DNA of 64,000 bases from Escherichia coli (GCF_003790525.1 NZ_CP033635.1), one strand, 5' to 3'; shown: positions 1,695-57,049, counted from the stretch's first letter. The notes: generated by a model from the letters alone, not told the origin. Program-made: numbers and translations.

Positions 1695-2657
1695 TTATTG
1701 CACGAAGCGCGAGGTCACGTACTGGCTGTAATCATTCGCCACGGCAGGGACTTTACCCTGATCTTTCAAAAACTGCGCGGTATCGATGATCGCTTTATTC
1801 ACCGGTCCGGTCAGTTCTGCCGTTTGTTGCTGCGGCGTCAGATAGGTATTCCCCTTCACCAGCCCCGGAACGTCACCTTCAGGCACGCCGCTTAACCGCG
1901 CCAGTTTGCTGATGTTTTCCGGCTGTTTCAGCCACGCGTCTGGGTTAGCAATGTACGGTTGCTGAGCATCGATGGCGCTTTTAGCGAACGCTTTCACGAC
2001 CTCAGGATGTTTCTCGGCAAAATCTTTGCGCACTACCCAGACATCCAGCGTCGGCGCACCCCACTGCCCGACCTGTTCAGAATCGGTCAGCACCTTGCCG
2101 TCTTTTTCCAGGGCGTTAACCGCCGGTGCCCAGACATAAGCACCATCAATGTCTCCCCGCTGCCATGCAGCGATAATCGCGGGCGGCTGCAGGTTCACAA
2201 TCTCCACTTGCCCGGGTTTAATACCCCAGTGTTTCAGCGCCGCCAGCAGGCTGTAGTGGGTGGTGGAGATAAACGGTACGGCGATGCGCTTGCCAATCAG
2301 ATCTTCCGGTTTGCTGATAGTTTTCTTTACCACCAGCGCTTCGGAGTTACCCAGTTTTGACGCCAGCAAGAAGACTTCAATCGGCACCTGTTGGCTGGTT
2401 GCAACCGCTAACGGGCTGGAACCGAGGTTGCCGATTTGCACGTCGCCTGAAGCCAGCGCCCGCACGATGCTGGCTCCGCTGTCAAACTTACGCCAGTCCA
2501 CGGTTGCTCCGCTTTCTTTAGCAAAGGTGTTGTCGGCCTGAGCCACTTTCGCCGGTTCGGCGGAGGTTTGATACGCCACGGTGACGTTCACCGCCTGCGC
2601 CTGAAAAGCGATGAATGCCAGTGCGGCAAGAAGTGTGTTACGCGATGAAATTGCCAT
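1695..2657 (-). CDS. tauA: taurine ABC transporter periplasmic binding protein
   Basis: ORF 1695-2714; likely start at internal ATG giving signal peptide [22 protein letters not shown] and 320 aa. Confidence 0.85.
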
Positions 2658-3272
2658 GATTGTCTGCTCCCCTGTCTTGTTATGGGAGCAGTATTCAGGA
2701 ATAAAAACATTCATTAAAAGAATTAGTCGTTATCGCACAGATGATTTTATTCTTAGCAAAAAAACGGCAAAGGAAAGATTAAATATGCAATTACTCCGTT
2801 CTAACAATTGGGAAAATTACTACACTTCATTTTAGTGATGCATAAACAACCACATTACGAGATTTATTACTTCATTATTTCTATCAATATCAATACATAT
2901 AATAAAACTATTATATTCGCATTGTATATATCACTGTATCATTCTCAATCACTCGCATATTACATTCACATAATGTATATAAACAATACTTGTTCACAGA
3001 ACATATTTTTTAAATGCAATTAATTGACAAACTAAATCACATCTAAATACAATGTATAAAACAAAATAACTATACATACCAAACATACAAACACTTAACA
3101 TATGAATTGCATAAAAACATTACCCAGTCGAACCTCCGGGTCTGAAAGCCCTTGCTTTTCAGTTATTAGCAACATTTAACATTTATAAATTAACATCTGG
3201 CTGCGCCAGAGATTACGTCTCTGAGTGCATCGTTGTGCTTGTAGTATAATAAATAAAATGGAGTGTCATTAA

Positions 3273-3944
3273 GTGGATAAGGTTTTAGATTCAGCCCTCC
3301 TTTCTTCGGCAAATAAAAGAAAGGGTATCCTTGCTATTGGCGCACATCCTGACGATATAGAATTAGGCTGTGGCGCATCGCTTGCTCGTCTTGCGCAAAA
3401 AGGAATTTATATCGCAGCCGTGGTGATGACTACCGGCAACTCTGGCACAGATGGAATAATCGATCGCCATGAAGAATCGCGCAACGCCCTAAAGATATTA
3501 GGGTGCCACCAAACTATTCATCTTAATTTTGCTGACACCCGCGCTCATTTACAGCTCAATGATATGATTTCCGCCCTGGAAGACATCATTAAAAATCAAA
3601 TTCCTTCTGATGTTGAAATCATGCGGGTATATACCATGCATGATGCTGACCGCCATCAGGATCATCTTGCAGTCTATCAAGCCTCAATGGTTGCCTGCCG
3701 AACTATTCCACAAATTCTCGGCTACGAAACCCCAAGTACCTGGCTTTCATTTATGCCTCAGGTTTTTGAATCCGTTAAAGAAGAATATTTCACAGTCAAA
3801 CTTGCTGCATTAAAAAAACATAAAAGCCAGGAACGACGCGATTATATGCGTCATGATCGCCTGCGTGCAGTTGCACAATTTCGCGGGCAACAGGTCAATA
3901 GCGATCTGGGTGAAGGCTTTGTAATTCATAAAATGATTCTTTGA
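3273..3944 (+). CDS. yaiS: LmbE/PIG-L family putative N-acetylglucosaminyl deacetylase
   Basis: GAHPDDIELG motif near N-terminus and HDADRHQDH metal-site-like motif; GGAG 9 nt upstream of GTG at 3273; start uncertain. Confidence 0.7.
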   Translation: MDKVLDSALLSSANKRKGILAIGAHPDDIELGCGASLARLAQKGIYIAAVVMTTGNSGTDGIIDRHEESRNALKILGCHQTIHLNFADTRAHLQLNDMISALEDIIKNQIPSDVEIMRVYTMHDADRHQDHLAVYQASMVACRTIPQILGYETPSTWLSFMPQVFESVKEEYFTVKLAALKKHKSQERRDYMRHDRLRAVAQFRGQQVNSDLGEGFVIHKMIL

Positions 3945-51361: not shown

Positions 51362-52294
51362 ATGAACTCAATTTTTACCGAAGAGAATCTGTTGGCATTT
51401 ACTACCGCTGCGCGTTTTGGCAGTTTCAGTAAAGCAGCAGAAGAGTTGGGTTTAACCACTTCCGCCATTAGCTACACCATCAAGCGAATGGAAACAGGGC
51501 TGGATGTGGTGCTGTTCACTCGCAGTACCCGAAGCATTGAGTTAACGGAGTCCGGGCGTTATTTTTTCCGCAAAGCTACCGACCTGCTGAATGATTTTCA
51601 CGCCATCAAACGCAGCATCGATACTATTTCGCAGGGTATAGAAGCACGGGTGCGCATTTGTATTAACCAACTGCTTTATACGCCCAAACACACCGCACGC
51701 TTATTACAGGTACTGAAAAAGCAGTTTCCAACCTGCCAGATTACCGTGACGACCGAAGTGTATAACGGCGTCTGGGATGCGATTATTAATAATCAGGCGA
51801 ATATTGCTATCGGCGCGCCCGACACACTGCTGGACGGCGGCGGCATTGATTACACGGAGATTGGCGCGATTCGCTGGGCTTTTGCTATCGCCCCGGATCA
51901 CCCGTTAGCCTTTGTGCCGGAACCCATCGCCGAAAGCCAGCTGCGTCTCTATCCTAATATCATGGTGGAAGACACCGCGCATACGATTAATAAAAAAGTG
52001 GGCTGGTTGCTGCATGGGCAGGAGTCGATTCTGGTGCCAGATTTCAACACCAAATGTCAGTGCCAGATTTTAGGTGAAGGAATTGGTTTTTTGCCGGATT
52101 ACATGGTCCGTGAGGCGATGGCGCAATCCCTGCTGGTTACCCGACAAATCCATAATCCGCGCCAGGATTCACGCATGTTACTCGCAACTCAGCATTCTGC
52201 TACGGGTCAGGTGACGCAGTGGATTAAAAAGCAATTTGCGCCAAATGGCATATTAACGGGGATCTATCAGGATTTACTGCATCGGGAGAATTAA
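51362..52294 (+). CDS. yahB: LysR-family transcriptional regulator
   Basis: 310 aa; N-terminal HTH LLAFTTAARFGSFSKAAEELGLTTSAISYTIKRME. Confidence 0.85.
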   Translation: MNSIFTEENLLAFTTAARFGSFSKAAEELGLTTSAISYTIKRMETGLDVVLFTRSTRSIELTESGRYFFRKATDLLNDFHAIKRSIDTISQGIEARVRICINQLLYTPKHTARLLQVLKKQFPTCQITVTTEVYNGVWDAIINNQANIAIGAPDTLLDGGGIDYTEIGAIRWAFAIAPDHPLAFVPEPIAESQLRLYPNIMVEDTAHTINKKVGWLLHGQESILVPDFNTKCQCQILGEGIGFLPDYMVREAMAQSLLVTRQIHNPRQDSRMLLATQHSATGQVTQWIKKQFAPNGILTGIYQDLLHREN

Positions 52295-52335
52295 TCGCTG
52301 CCAACCTCCCGATGCGCTGTGAATAGCGGTTTACA

Positions 52336-53424
52336 TCAACCACCTGCTTTCATTACCCATTCAGAGATAAATTTATTACCCGGTACTGGCGGAGAGTACA
52401 AATAGCCCTGCAAAAAGTGAACTCCTTTGCCGATCATTAAATCCGCCTGCTCCTGGGTTTCTACCCCTTCCGCCACGATACTCAGACCAGGCTTACGCGC
52501 CAGTTCGACAATATTGTCCACAATATGACCGGATATTTCGTCCACGCTCGCCATTTGCACAAATGACTTATCGATCTTAATAAAATCGACCGGGAACGCC
52601 TGCAAGTAACGATAGGTCGCATAACCCGTACCAAAGTCATCCAGCGCAAAGGTAATGTTGTGCTGATGAAGGCTGTCAAATATCGCTCTGGCTTCTGGCG
52701 TTACCGGAATAGGGTTACGTTCCGTCAGCTCAAGAACCAGTTTGATTTTATCGTTACCTAATTTCTTAACCAGGTTCAGACACTCTTTTTCAAATCCTGC
52801 GGCCAAAAAACAACCCGCCGAGACGTTGATGCCAATATGGAAATTGTCCGGCAGCAAATGTTTTACCGGCATCAGAATATCCGCAGTCTGTTTCATCAAC
52901 TGGCGAGTCATTATGACGATAAGACCAGATGACTCCGCCAGAGGAATAAACTGATCCGGTGGGATAATTCCCGTTTGTGGATGTTCCCAGCGGACAAGCA
53001 CCTCACAGCCCGTCAGTACCCCAGTCTGCGCGCAGAAAACCGGTTGGATCCACGGTTTAAATTCATGGTTTTCCAACGCCAGACTGATGGCTTCAGGCGT
53101 GACGATATGGTGATAGTGATTATCATTAATATATTTGTGACTATTATTACCCGTGGCGGATATGATCTCCGGATTGTACTGAAAGAAAATATCCCGCCAG
53201 AAAGTAATATCGCTCTGAATCCCCAGTTTCTCAAAGAGCTGTTTCTTTTGATGTGAAATGGTCTTTGCACTGCGATTTCTGTACTGTGATATTTCTGTTA
53301 CAGACATTCCCTGCATCAGCAGCTTGAGTAGCAGTCGTTCTTTCTCGGATACGCTACCAGGCAATGACAAATGAACCGTTGTACCGAACTCTTGCAGAAA
53401 AACACGAAAATCACATGAATTCAT
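52336..53424 (-). CDS. pdeL: c-di-GMP phosphodiesterase with LuxR-type HTH and EAL domain
   Basis: ORF 52336-53430; LuxR HTH LSEKERLLLKLLMQGMSVTEISQYRNRSAKTISHQKK; EAL-domain motifs ELTE and DDFGTG. Confidence 0.85.
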   Translation of the reverse strand: MNSCDFRVFLQEFGTTVHLSLPGSVSEKERLLLKLLMQGMSVTEISQYRNRSAKTISHQKKQLFEKLGIQSDITFWRDIFFQYNPEIISATGNNSHKYINDNHYHHIVTPEAISLALENHEFKPWIQPVFCAQTGVLTGCEVLVRWEHPQTGIIPPDQFIPLAESSGLIVIMTRQLMKQTADILMPVKHLLPDNFHIGINVSAGCFLAAGFEKECLNLVKKLGNDKIKLVLELTERNPIPVTPEARAIFDSLHQHNITFALDDFGTGYATYRYLQAFPVDFIKIDKSFVQMASVDEISGHIVDNIVELARKPGLSIVAEGVETQEQADLMIGKGVHFLQGYLYSPPVPGNKFISEWVMKAGG

Positions 53425-54299
53425 GAACACACCTTTTATCTTTTATCGCTGTTCAGTATGAGTGATTACCTGTGGATTCCTGAGCACACATAAGGGGTAA
53501 CCATAAACATTAGCGATGCCATACGTATAACATCCCACATCACTATCAAGAAGATTATCTTTACCTCTGATGCTCGCTCAAAAACAGTTACGCTAAATAC
53601 CTTAAAAAGGTAATCACAAGTCAAACTCAGGAGATAATCACGCAAGAATGCAATATTAAAATTCAGATACTCATTTTTGGTAATAAAGAAGTAGTTGGAC
53701 TATTTCGATATTTATAATTTCCCACTACGTATTGACGCCCATTCATGAGTAAAGGCGCATTATATGAATTTAACAATCCAGATCAACTGAAAATACCTCA
53801 ACCTCATAAACACATAGCGTCAACATTCAATGACATAATGAGTAAAGATGTTGGTTATGCATACACGTCATTACTCTATGCCTATCCCTTAACAACCTGC
53901 TTTTTAAGACTGAATCCATTCAGCAATAGATAGCCAACATTATAACAATGACAATAAAAACAATATTTAAAACAATCAATAAAATATCAGACACAGACAA
54001 TTAAACCTTAAACAACAAACGGTTACATTGATTTTAGTTGATTTGCGCTACGCGTTCCCCATGAATAAAGCGTCATTTCAAATTAGCACCAATATTTACA
54101 TTAAATAAGACTAAGCTTATTGAACATTCACAACAGTCCAAACGTAGGTTTTGGGCTTCAATAGTTCTTTTCTTTTTTATTATCTGTTGCCTGGCAATCA
54201 TCAATCGATACTAAGGGCTTAACTGTACAGATATAACGTATCAAGAGGTAAGAGAAACCGCGCCATATGCAGACATGGCGCGGTTTTATGCAAAAACAA

Positions 54300-56333
54300 T
54301 CACGCGTCCGGGAACATCACGCTATGGCCCGGCGCTTCACGATGGAGATGGATAAAGTTAAGATGCCGCTCGTACTGGTCAAGAATATCGGTGATCACCT
54401 GCTCTTTGCTGTAGTCCATCAGGTCGTTGCCCTGGCTGCCTTCTAACAGGAAGGTTTCCAGCCGGTAGTAGGTCGATTTACCGCTACGTGCGCGGTAGGT
54501 AAAGCCCGGCACCGAATATTGCTGCGGCCAAATCTGATAGACAAAGTTTTGCTCTTCGCCCATATGCACCAACAAATCCAGATGCCCCAACTGTTGTCCC
54601 TCTTCCGGCGGCAGGCTTTTTAGCTCCACGTACGCGCCGCGCAACCGCAACTCCTGCGCCACTTCTTCCATTGCCGGGTAACAGACCGTCTCCATCATCT
54701 GTTTAGTGTAACGCGTGCCCGGATAATTCATCAGGCGCGAGAGACGTTTTTTCCAGCTCAGGCGATCCTGAAGCCCCAGCGGTCGCGGTGCGGTATCGCG
54801 GTTGGCACTTTCACGGCGGTAATCTTCTACCTTCAGAGATTTATACAACCCCGCCATCACGAAGAAGATCACAAAGCTGAACGGCAGGCCCATAATCACC
54901 GTGGTGTTTTGCAGCGCGGATATCCCGTTGGTCATCAGCATGCCGAGCGTCAGCAGGCCAATCGCCACCGACCAGAAGACGCGCAGCCAGCCGGGGGCGT
55001 CGCTGTTGATATCTTTAAGCTGCGAGGTGAAATTCCCCAGCACCAGCGCCCCGGAGTCCGCCGAGGTCACATAAAACAGCAGGCCAGTAATGGTGGCGAC
55101 GGAGGCGCTAAAGGTAAACGCCGGATACTGCGCCAGCAGGCTGTAGAAGCCGCGCTCCGGATGGACCATCGCTTCCTCGGCAAATGCCGCGCCGCCGTGG
55201 ATGATTTCATACAGCGCGCTATTGCCGAACACCGAGAGCCATAACAGCGTGAAGGTAAACGGAATAATCAACGTGCCCAGCACGAACTGGCGAATGGTAC
55301 GCCCACGCGAGATACGCGCCAGGAACAAGCCAACAAACGGCGACCATGCCACCCACCATGCCCAGAAGAAGAGCGTCCAGTTATTCATCCACTCAACCGG
55401 ACGGTCGAAGGCAAAACTGTTGAGCGTCATGCCCATAAAGCGATTCATATAGTCGCCAACGTTCAGCACCAGCGCATTAAGCAGGAACGAGGTGTCGCCC
55501 ATAAACAGCACGAAAAGGATCAATCCCAGCGCCAGCGCAACGTTAAGTTCCGATAACACACGAATCCCCTTATCGACACCGGAGGTGACAGAGATCGTGG
55601 CGATGATCACCGACAAGGCGATCAGTGCCGCTTTCGCCGCCATTGAATCGGGAATATCAAACAGTACGCTCAAGCCATAGTTAAGCTGCACCACACCGAT
55701 ACCGAGCGTAGTGGCAATACCGAAGATGGTGCCGATCACCGCTGCAATATCCACTGAGTGACCTATCGGCCCGTTAATCCGTTTACCGAAGATCGGGTAC
55801 AGCGCCGAGCGGATGGTGAGCGGCAAATTATAACGATAACTAAAGTATCCGAGCGCCATGCCCATCAGCGCATACATCGACCAGCCGGTTAAGCCGTAGT
55901 GAAACAGCGTCCAGACCATCGCCTGACGCGCGGCCTCAATCGTCTGACCCGCGCCTTCCGGCGGCTGCATATACTGCGTTACCGGTTCGGCTACGGAGAA
56001 GAACATCAGGTCGATACCGATCCCGGCAGCAAACAGCATCGCCGCCCAACTCAGCAGACTGAATTCCGGTTTTGATTGTTCTGGCCCGAGCTTCACCGAA
56101 CCAAAACGCGAACAAGCGATGCAGACCACAAAGACAATATAGAGCGTTGCCGCCAGCAGATAGTACCAACCGAAGGTTTTAGAGACCCAGTCCAGCGTGC
56201 GTCCAATCCACAGGGCCGAGAAGTCGCGAAACAGGATCGTTGTCAGGGAAAACAACAAAATCAGTCCGGCGGAAGTGTAAAACACCACCGGATTGATTTT
56301 GTCCTTTTCCCTGCTGTGTGAAAGGTCTGTCAT
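54300..56333 (-). CDS. betT: choline transporter (BCCT family)
   Basis: 677 aa, 12-TM core plus cytoplasmic C-terminal extension. Confidence 0.92.
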   Translation of the reverse strand: MTDLSHSREKDKINPVVFYTSAGLILLFSLTTILFRDFSALWIGRTLDWVSKTFGWYYLLAATLYIVFVVCIACSRFGSVKLGPEQSKPEFSLLSWAAMLFAAGIGIDLMFFSVAEPVTQYMQPPEGAGQTIEAARQAMVWTLFHYGLTGWSMYALMGMALGYFSYRYNLPLTIRSALYPIFGKRINGPIGHSVDIAAVIGTIFGIATTLGIGVVQLNYGLSVLFDIPDSMAAKAALIALSVIIATISVTSGVDKGIRVLSELNVALALGLILFVLFMGDTSFLLNALVLNVGDYMNRFMGMTLNSFAFDRPVEWMNNWTLFFWAWWVAWSPFVGLFLARISRGRTIRQFVLGTLIIPFTFTLLWLSVFGNSALYEIIHGGAAFAEEAMVHPERGFYSLLAQYPAFTFSASVATITGLLFYVTSADSGALVLGNFTSQLKDINSDAPGWLRVFWSVAIGLLTLGMLMTNGISALQNTTVIMGLPFSFVIFFVMAGLYKSLKVEDYRRESANRDTAPRPLGLQDRLSWKKRLSRLMNYPGTRYTKQMMETVCYPAMEEVAQELRLRGAYVELKSLPPEEGQQLGHLDLLVHMGEEQNFVYQIWPQQYSVPGFTYRARSGKSTYYRLETFLLEGSQGNDLMDYSKEQVITDILDQYERHLNFIHLHREAPGHSVMFPDA

Positions 56334-56397
56334 CCAGTATCCCCACTGTTATTGTTACCATTTAAAATCAAATTCGTAACAATTAAGACACATTTTA

Positions 56398-56417
56398 TAT
56401 TGAACGTCCAATCAATA
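56398..56417. promoter_or_regulatory. candidate BetI operator in divergent betT/betI promoter region
   Basis: TATTGA-acgtccaa-TCAATA inverted repeat. Confidence 0.4.
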
Positions 56418-56461
56418 ACCGCTTTAATAGATAAACAACGCTGATGAATGGAGTGGCGAAA

Positions 56462-57049
56462 ATGCCCAAATTGGGGATGCAGTCGATCCGGCGCAGACAA
56501 CTGATCGACGCCACGCTGGAAGCAATAAATGAAGTGGGCATGCACGATGCAACGATCGCGCAGATCGCCCGCCGTGCAGGCGTTTCTACGGGGATCATCA
56601 GCCACTATTTCAGGGACAAAAATGGTCTGCTGGAAGCAACCATGCGCGATATCACCAGTCAGCTGCGTGACGCGGTTTTGAATCGATTACATGCACTTCC
56701 GCAGGGCAGTGCAGAGCAGCGATTACAGGCGATTGTTGGCGGAAACTTCGACGAAACGCAGGTGAGCAGTGCGGCGATGAAAGCCTGGCTGGCGTTCTGG
56801 GCCAGCAGTATGCATCAGCCGATGCTCTATCGCTTGCAGCAGGTCAGTAGCCGCCGCTTATTGTCGAATCTGGTGAGCGAATTTCACCGCGAGTTACCGC
56901 GCCAACAGGCGCAGGAAGCGGGCTACGGACTTGCCGCGCTGATTGACGGATTATGGCTGCGCGCGGCACTGAGCGGCAAACCGCTGGATAAACCTCTCGC
57001 ACACTCGCTGACCCGTCACTTTATTACTCAGCATTTACCCACCGATTAA
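56462..57049 (+). CDS. betI: TetR-family repressor of bet genes
   Basis: ORF trimmed to [50 protein letters not shown] (195 aa). Confidence 0.9.

Follow-up and report, generated by a model that had tools for sequence, protein, structure and literature searches.

Between betT and pdeL in Escherichia coli lies a long gap of AT-rich DNA, and the question it raises is whether so much sequence serves to control pdeL, hides an unannotated gene, encodes a regulatory RNA, or is left over from the loss of something else. We addressed this question in a stretch of 64,000 nucleotides from E. coli (GCF_003790525.1, NZ_CP033635.1; "the window"), with positions counted from its first letter. In the RefSeq annotation of CFSAN061771, which is 100% identical to the window over the gap, pdeL (encoding a LuxR-type HTH and an EAL domain) occupies 52336-53424 and betT, also present in our ORF list, occupies 54300-56333, so that 53425-54299 is exactly the 875-bp betT-pdeL intergenic region, hereafter the spacer. 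The first-pass annotation had placed this gap correctly to the base; it had also described both flanking genes as transcribed away from it, and this geometry was wrong, as the ORF list, the RefSeq annotation and the K-12 annotation all put betT and pdeL on the minus strand. Because both genes lie on that strand, the 3' end of betT faces the spacer, and it is from the spacer that pdeL is transcribed. In the RefSeq records of both CFSAN061771 and K-12, the order is betI, betT, spacer, pdeL, yahB. We tried to extend colinearity between the window and CFSAN061771 across 50 kb and this failed; the coordinates of the genes flanking the spacer coincide exactly. The spacer is 99.7% identical to that of Nissle 1917 and 93% identical to that of K-12 (875 versus 874 bp), with 97% identity in the leader of pdeL and ∼89% in the betT-proximal upstream half.

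The spacer stands out in both length and composition. Among 42 gaps annotated over a 50-kb stretch of CFSAN061771 that includes the locus, it is the longest (875 bp, the next being 413 bp), and its G+C fraction is 0.347 against 0.525 for the whole window. The G+C minimum of the 64 kb for segments of 875 bp falls within it, and only 0.2% of such segments are as low. A/T tracts of at least 5 nt number seven, relative to a mean of 3.1 across the window (top 8%). The first-pass description of an unusually long, AT-rich gap with many A/T tracts was therefore accurate on each point. The sole other stretch of the window that is equally AT-rich, at ∼2654-3575, falls, in matching genomes, in the area of tauA and a gene of the PIG-L deacetylase family.

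The same DNA is already known and dissected in K-12, and the spacer is ordinary rather than new. In the preprint by Reinders et al. (bioRxiv 10.1101/2021.10.01.462762), the K-12 "pdeL promoter region" comprises the betT-pdeL intergenic region in full (reporter primers 4398/4399); a Cra box overlaps a Cra-dependent PdeL box (CDB), and a distal palindrome forms a Cra-independent PdeL box (CIB). Several H-NS sites are described there, one overlapping CIB, where H-NS and PdeL compete in vitro, and IHF and Fis sites lie between CIB and CDB. The preprint also reports that an hns mutant strongly derepresses pdeL, that expression is lost without Cra or PdeL, and that pdeL autoregulation is c-di-GMP-dependent and bistable. 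ChIP-chip found FIS, H-NS and IHF at the regulatory region of yahA (the same gene as pdeL), with RNA polymerase bound there without moving into the gene (Grainger et al. 2006, PMC1636352).

From sequence alone, the first-pass annotation had proposed dense regulation upstream of pdeL and silencing by nucleoid proteins. For the former, K-12 offers the Cra box, two PdeL boxes and the H-NS, IHF and Fis sites, and we located the Cra box, CIB and the CDB position in the window; for the latter, it offers derepression in the hns mutant, the competition between H-NS and PdeL at CIB, and the ChIP-chip occupancy. The functional interpretation is thus supported despite the wrong geometry, and it was already established for K-12: a long AT-rich spacer correctly pointed to a heavily regulated, H-NS-silenced promoter. 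Expression of pdeL in CFT073 is higher at 37 °C than at 23 °C, as is often seen with H-NS control. We conclude, with a probability of about 0.9, that 53425-54299 holds all of the cis-regulatory DNA of pdeL together with its 5' leader, and that the betT terminator sits at the upstream end of this interval; for this allele, we infer protein binding, silencing and the start sites from K-12 by sequence identity.

The upstream end carries an intrinsic terminator hairpin for betT (54255-54286, minus strand), a perfect 12-bp stem (AAACCGCGCCAT/ATGGCGCGGTTT) with an 8-nt loop followed by UUUCUCUU. It folds at -24.3 kcal/mol (z = -4.6 relative to shuffles), it was recovered as an inverted repeat in a repeat search of the spacer, and it combines a G+C-rich hairpin with a U-tract directly after the betT stop, as Rho-independent terminators do; a simple scan for a strict terminator consensus gave no call at this hairpin. 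In E. coli FORC_028, one of the genomes that carry the adhesin gene ehaA at this junction (see below), the betT hairpin is followed by GAATCATT, not by the T-rich TTTCTCTT (locus L004, 5001-5050, against window 54250-54299). Because of this replacement, betT termination may be weaker in ehaA-carrying genomes, where read-through into the ehaA promoter region would be possible. In Escherichia sp. E1V33 (locus L005, 3000-6200) and E. whittamii (locus L008, 140-2330), the upstream gene has no nucleotide match to betT; a terminator-like hairpin related to the betT hairpin is still kept in both, and E. whittamii retains the last ∼26 nt of betT.

Comparison of divergent alleles provided a footprint of the remaining DNA. 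Full-length PdeL orthologues were found only in Escherichia, in a scan of one genome per species. The same ehaA-less spacer is carried by Escherichia sp. E1V33 (75% identity) and by SCPM-O-B-8794 (71%), the latter a GTDB species representative labelled E. coli, and it is this low identity that makes the two alleles usable for footprinting. An alignment of five alleles leaves these islands invariant: the left half of CIB, the Cra box, two short blocks at -92 to -64, the region of the main promoter P1, and the end of the leader. Of these, CIB, the Cra box and the promoter coincide with sites defined experimentally in K-12, while every open reading frame is broken in at least one divergent allele.

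We reconstructed the positions of the K-12 sites from the oligonucleotide and strain tables of the preprint and then mapped them to the window. CIB is the perfect palindrome AATAAG-N6-CTTATT (AATAAGcttagtCTTATT) at 54104-54121, placed both by the K-12 oligonucleotides and by a motif search; in those tables, the "CIB fwd/rev" EMSA oligonucleotides 4991/4997 bracket a fragment containing AATAAGtttagtCTTATT (Reinders et al.). A search for PdeL binding sites had been suggested by the first-pass annotation, and it returned CIB as the sole zero-mismatch match in the 64 kb. The half-sites are the same as in K-12, with one base different in the centre; the left half, TTCAATAAG, is invariant among alleles that are only 71-75% identical overall, and the palindrome lies ∼200 bp upstream of the Cra box, as in the K-12 pdeL region.

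The Cra (FruR) box, GCTGAATGGATTCAG at 53910-53924, is, with all alleles compared, the longest invariant upstream block, and the region upstream of ehaA has it too. When the window was queried with a palindrome of the Cra consensus type, this box was the only match at up to 3 mismatches. The 15-mer is identical to that of K-12, where, according to the tables, the CB- reporter (primer 5030, strain AB2400) has GCTGAATGGATTCAG replaced by a scrambled sequence (Reinders et al.). The putative proximal PdeL box adjoins it at 53896-53908. In K-12 this box, CDB, was defined by a scrambling primer (5028, strain AB2402) that, as tabulated, replaces CTTAATGAGTGGG immediately downstream of the Cra box (Reinders et al.). 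The window has CTTAAAAAGCAGG at this position, which matches K-12 at nine of 13 bases and differs at four, and the box has no conservation in the divergent alleles. Because the box is changed at 4/13 positions and is not conserved between clades, PdeL autoregulation, and with it the c-di-GMP switch, may differ quantitatively in this allele type, which is shared with Nissle 1917.

Two further invariant blocks, TTACTCATT and ATGTTGACGC, were revealed by the alignment footprint at 53817-53845 (approximately -92 to -64 from the P1 start), and the parts of the pdeL literature available to us describe no matching site there. The classic high-affinity H-NS 10-mer, TCGATAAATT, has two matches in the spacer at up to 2 mismatches, with no local enrichment.

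The main promoter of pdeL, P1, lies at 53759-53786 on the minus strand, with a -35 element TTGATC (53786-53781) and a -10 element TATAAT (53764-53759), both mapped from K-12, separated by 16 bp. It ranked first in our promoter scan (10/12 matches). The K-12 oligonucleotides listed in the preprint point to the same place: the "RNAP interaction" oligonucleotide ends at catataatgcgcctttgctc, at P1, and the primer for the "P1" reporter alters the bases on either side of TTGATC and those between it and TATAAT (Reinders et al.). Across the divergent alleles, the -35/-10/start-site region is 85% invariant, and it is conserved upstream of ehaA as well. Transcription start site mapping, another check that the first-pass annotation had suggested, was available for the pdeL direction from Cappable-seq in MG1655, where a start is listed at U00096.2 331267 with a score of 8.9 (PMC4782308). 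This main start corresponds to 53753 in the window, 6 nt after TATAAT. Weaker starts in this direction are listed at 331353 and 331503, which map to 53667 and 53517. The start itself was measured in K-12, and the sequence from -45 to +3 around it is identical between K-12 and the window; therefore, we take the pdeL leader to be 328 nt long, from the P1 start at 53753 to the base before the ATG (53425-53753, minus strand).

A leader of this length could itself be the functional element, as a riboswitch-like structure or a small RNA controlling pdeL. Its 328 nt are unusually long, K-12 Cappable-seq places two minor start sites within it, and its last ∼100 nt (53425-53520), which include the invariant GTGCTCAGGAATC, are 82-90% invariant across the divergent alleles, as conserved as coding sequence. 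Against this stands the RNA itself: no Rfam 15 family matched at E <= 1 on either strand of 52000-56800 (4.8 kb), and the folding energy of a 358-nt sequence spanning the leader was within the range of shuffled sequences (z = -1.48). A consensus fold of the five alleles gave nothing distinctive; because these represent only three independent lineages, too few for covariation, that fold is uninformative. Our literature search found no paper linking CsrA or another RNA-binding factor to the pdeL leader. The segment 53425-53520 also contains the minor start at 53517, a palindrome at 53515-53534 and the ribosome-binding region, and any of a minor promoter at 53517, translation signals or DNA bound by protein could account for its conservation equally well. 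A post-transcriptional function of 53425-53520 is possible; as an account of the leader or spacer as a whole, we consider a structured regulatory RNA improbable, and we retain the pdeL control region as the preferred reading.

We were also concerned that the spacer might mainly be an unannotated protein-coding gene. The first-pass annotation had noted a 62-codon open reading frame as the only one in the gap. This frame exists, at 53745-53933 on the plus strand, antisense to the pdeL promoter, and no stop interrupts it in the alleles of the window, K-12 and ET479; it is not the only one, as the spacer also contains frames of 59, 43, 37, 31 and 30 codons and a 24-codon frame resembling yahV. As a gene, the 62-codon frame was rejected: it has several stops in E1V33 and in SCPM-O-B-8794, it has no annotation in any genome record inspected, and its local conservation follows from its overlap with the conserved promoter and Cra box. 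None of the spacer frames matched a Pfam or NCBIfam family, and all six that were tested, including two in the leader, are broken in at least one divergent allele.

The 24-codon frame makes the stronger case for a product. It lies at 53920-53994 on the minus strand, begins with GTG, is predicted to encode VSDILLIVLNIVFIVIVIMLAIYC, and is the positional orthologue of yahV (b4730), which is annotated in MG1655; the window-type allele was left unannotated by PGAP though the frame is open. Its stop codon falls inside the Cra box. Chromosomal tagging in K-12 detected the 24-amino acid YahV protein, whose gene lies between betT and pdeL (VanOrsdel et al. 2018, PMC6001520), and relative to that protein (PMC6001520; PMC9976479) the window version has the same position, length, GTG start and stop and the same hydrophobic predicted single-helix product, differing in that 17 of the 24 residues are identical, purifying selection leaves no sign, and the frame is lost in divergent alleles. 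Seven of the 24 codons differ from K-12, all nonsynonymously and with no synonymous change, and the identity of yahV to K-12 (89.3%) equals that of the flanking non-coding DNA (89.4%). The frame is broken in both E1V33 and SCPM-O-B-8794; directly upstream, a conserved TTAAGGTTTAATT is kept even in alleles in which the frame is dead. T-rich DNA yields hydrophobic reading frames by composition alone, which further weakens the coding case. In the Cappable-seq supplement, no K-12 start on the pdeL-direction strand lies between U00096.2 330673 and 331267, the stretch that holds yahV (PMC4782308). Because its changes are all nonsynonymous and its identity equals that of its flanks, YahV is best seen as an expressed (in K-12) but apparently unconstrained product of T-rich DNA. 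The spacer frames, annotated yahV included, thus show no sign of selection as proteins, and we regard a coding gene, whether the 62-codon frame or a selected YahV-type membrane peptide, as an unlikely explanation of the spacer. The first-pass suggestion of an unannotated small RNA or peptide accordingly divides: a peptide has been detected in K-12, and the small RNA found no support in an Rfam match or in folding beyond shuffles. We therefore continue with the spacer as the control region of pdeL.

The ehaA-less spacer is present in 3655 of 5426 complete E. coli genomes, and 1641 of the matching records are K-12-type alleles, 90-95% identical to the window. Some E. coli genomes keep only part of the spacer, and in others an IS1 element is inserted within it (NZ_AP029163.1, NZ_CM144235.1). 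The spacer also occurs on plasmids of ∼210-240 kb in laboratory K-12 strains (e.g., NZ_CP014273.1, NZ_CP053606.1), which we take to be F-prime episomes with the lac-pro region, and the few further plasmid matches are chromosome-sized records filed as plasmids. The plasmid matches are not evidence of spacer mobility.

In 1402 of the 5426 genomes (26%), a different arrangement places ehaA, a 4-kb autotransporter adhesin gene, between betT and pdeL. The sequence after the betT hairpin is then different, and pdeL begins 141 bp after ehaA, across a gap that contains a hairpin. By blastn and blastx, four segments are common to the two arrangements and nothing else is: the 42 nt that open the spacer (the terminator stem), the Cra box, the promoter core and the final 11 nt ahead of the pdeL ATG. 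Of the spacer, only the opening 42 nt are shared at high identity. We compared the region upstream of ehaA in E. coli FORC_028 (L004, 5001-5572), E. whittamii (L008, 2300-2793) and E. albertii (L007, 1-1185) with window positions 53753-53924. E. whittamii has ehaA, and in E. albertii the gene has decayed so that only the beta-barrel end is left. Upstream of ehaA, there is an identical 15-bp Cra box, and the promoter can be aligned as ATATTTT.AGTTGAT.TG...TATAATGCGC. From the Cra box to the -10 element, four ehaA-less sequences measure 159-160 bp and two ehaA-carrying sequences 157-158 bp, with the intervening DNA barely alignable between the two states. The ehaA-type region also has a CIB-like palindrome, AATAAG-N6-CTTAT (AATAAGacgattCTTAT), ∼25 bp after the Cra box. 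The region upstream of ehaA thus resembles the spacer in its position after the betT hairpin, its Cra box, its promoter core, their spacing of 157-160 bp and a CIB-like palindrome; it differs in being unrelated beyond +1, where a ∼236-nt leader and ehaA take the place of the 328-nt pdeL leader, and in being without the distal 330-bp segment that carries CIB and yahV.

This second arrangement bears on a further explanation, that the spacer is junk from gene decay or a mobile element, for instance the scar of a deleted ehaA, with a length that has no function. The occupation of the same position by ehaA in 26% of genomes, the decayed ehaA of E. albertii, the Cra box and promoter common to both arrangements, and the IS1 insertions in some spacers are what a scar might leave. 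No remnant of EhaA was found in the spacer at the nucleotide or protein level (blastn, blastx), however, and there were no repeats or mobile-element ends and no phage similarity; the plasmid matches look like large K-12-strain plasmids or chromosome-sized records. The ehaA-less form is moreover old, occurring in other Escherichia lineages with conserved islands at the defined sites, and the K-12 CIB-scrambling data argue against a functionless distal 330 bp (54257-53925). Junk is in our judgment very unlikely, the least probable of the explanations considered. An origin of the spacer by replacement of ehaA is compatible with its role as the pdeL control region and is not a rival to it.

The two states extend beyond the spacer. 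Between them, divergence reaches ∼325 nt into pdeL (72-88% identity), after which identity rises to 96-100%. The first 324 nt of pdeL cluster by ehaA state, not by species (93-98% identity among ehaA-less sequences, 89-92% among those with ehaA and ∼80% between the two groups). The EAL part groups by species, and the HTH recognition region does not differ between the two ehaA-state groups. Because the states extend this far into the gene, the DNA-binding N terminus of PdeL sorts by state; the 5' third of pdeL (window positions 53100-53424) and the spacer are parts of one deep haplotype block. These comparisons would fit an ancient two-state Escherichia locus, in which either ehaA or the spacer occupies the betT-pdeL junction, with a shared Cra box and promoter at the same spacing and states that run ∼325 nt into pdeL; we put this forward tentatively, as a reading that falls short of probable. 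If it is true and the shared module works alike in both settings, EhaA of EHEC and other carriers would be under the control of Cra, PdeL and c-di-GMP, and in the ehaA-less state a promoter for an adhesin would have passed straight to a phosphodiesterase gene. With the module also found at ehaA in a quarter of E. coli genomes, a testable prediction about adhesin regulation in pathogens follows. In our literature search, whose coverage was incomplete, we found no paper on ehaA with Cra or PdeL, nor on a two-state locus, and the sharing of the Cra box and promoter with the ehaA upstream region may be new.

Taken as the control region of pdeL, the spacer would work as follows in the window. From the betT stop at 54300, the betT transcript would end at the strong hairpin at 54286-54255. 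Some 500 bp of AT-rich DNA then carries CIB (54121-54104), yahV (53994-53920), the Cra box (53924-53910) and the adjacent putative proximal PdeL box, and the near-consensus sigma-70 promoter (53786-53759) lies 160 bp further on. Transcription would start at ∼53753 and proceed through the 328-nt leader to the pdeL ATG at 53424. By analogy with K-12, H-NS, with FIS and IHF, would coat the AT-rich DNA and keep RNA polymerase unproductive, and Cra at its box would enable PdeL to bind alongside. At low c-di-GMP, PdeL tetramers would also engage CIB ∼200 bp upstream, displace H-NS and recruit polymerase. The predicted outcome, as in K-12, is a switch-like positive autoregulation of the phosphodiesterase.

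Relative to the K-12 pdeL (yahA) region, the spacer has the same locus and flanking genes, the same Cra box, promoter and start context and CIB palindrome, and a leader that is 97% identical; it differs in the betT-proximal half (∼89%), in four of the 13 bases of CDB and in seven of the 24 residues of YahV, with yahV unannotated in the window. The content specific to this allele is minor, namely the unannotated, diverged yahV frame and the changed proximal PdeL box. More broadly, H-NS-silenced promoters that are relieved by a specific anti-silencer form a known class, with silencing of the bgl/proU type and counter-silencing of the LeuO/SlyA type as examples. On the K-12 data, the pdeL region shares with this class a long AT-rich upstream region, H-NS occupancy, trapped RNA polymerase and a sequence-specific activator (PdeL, with Cra) that competes with H-NS at a distal site. 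It differs in that the regulated gene itself encodes the anti-silencer, a c-di-GMP-degrading enzyme, which makes the loop in K-12 bistable.
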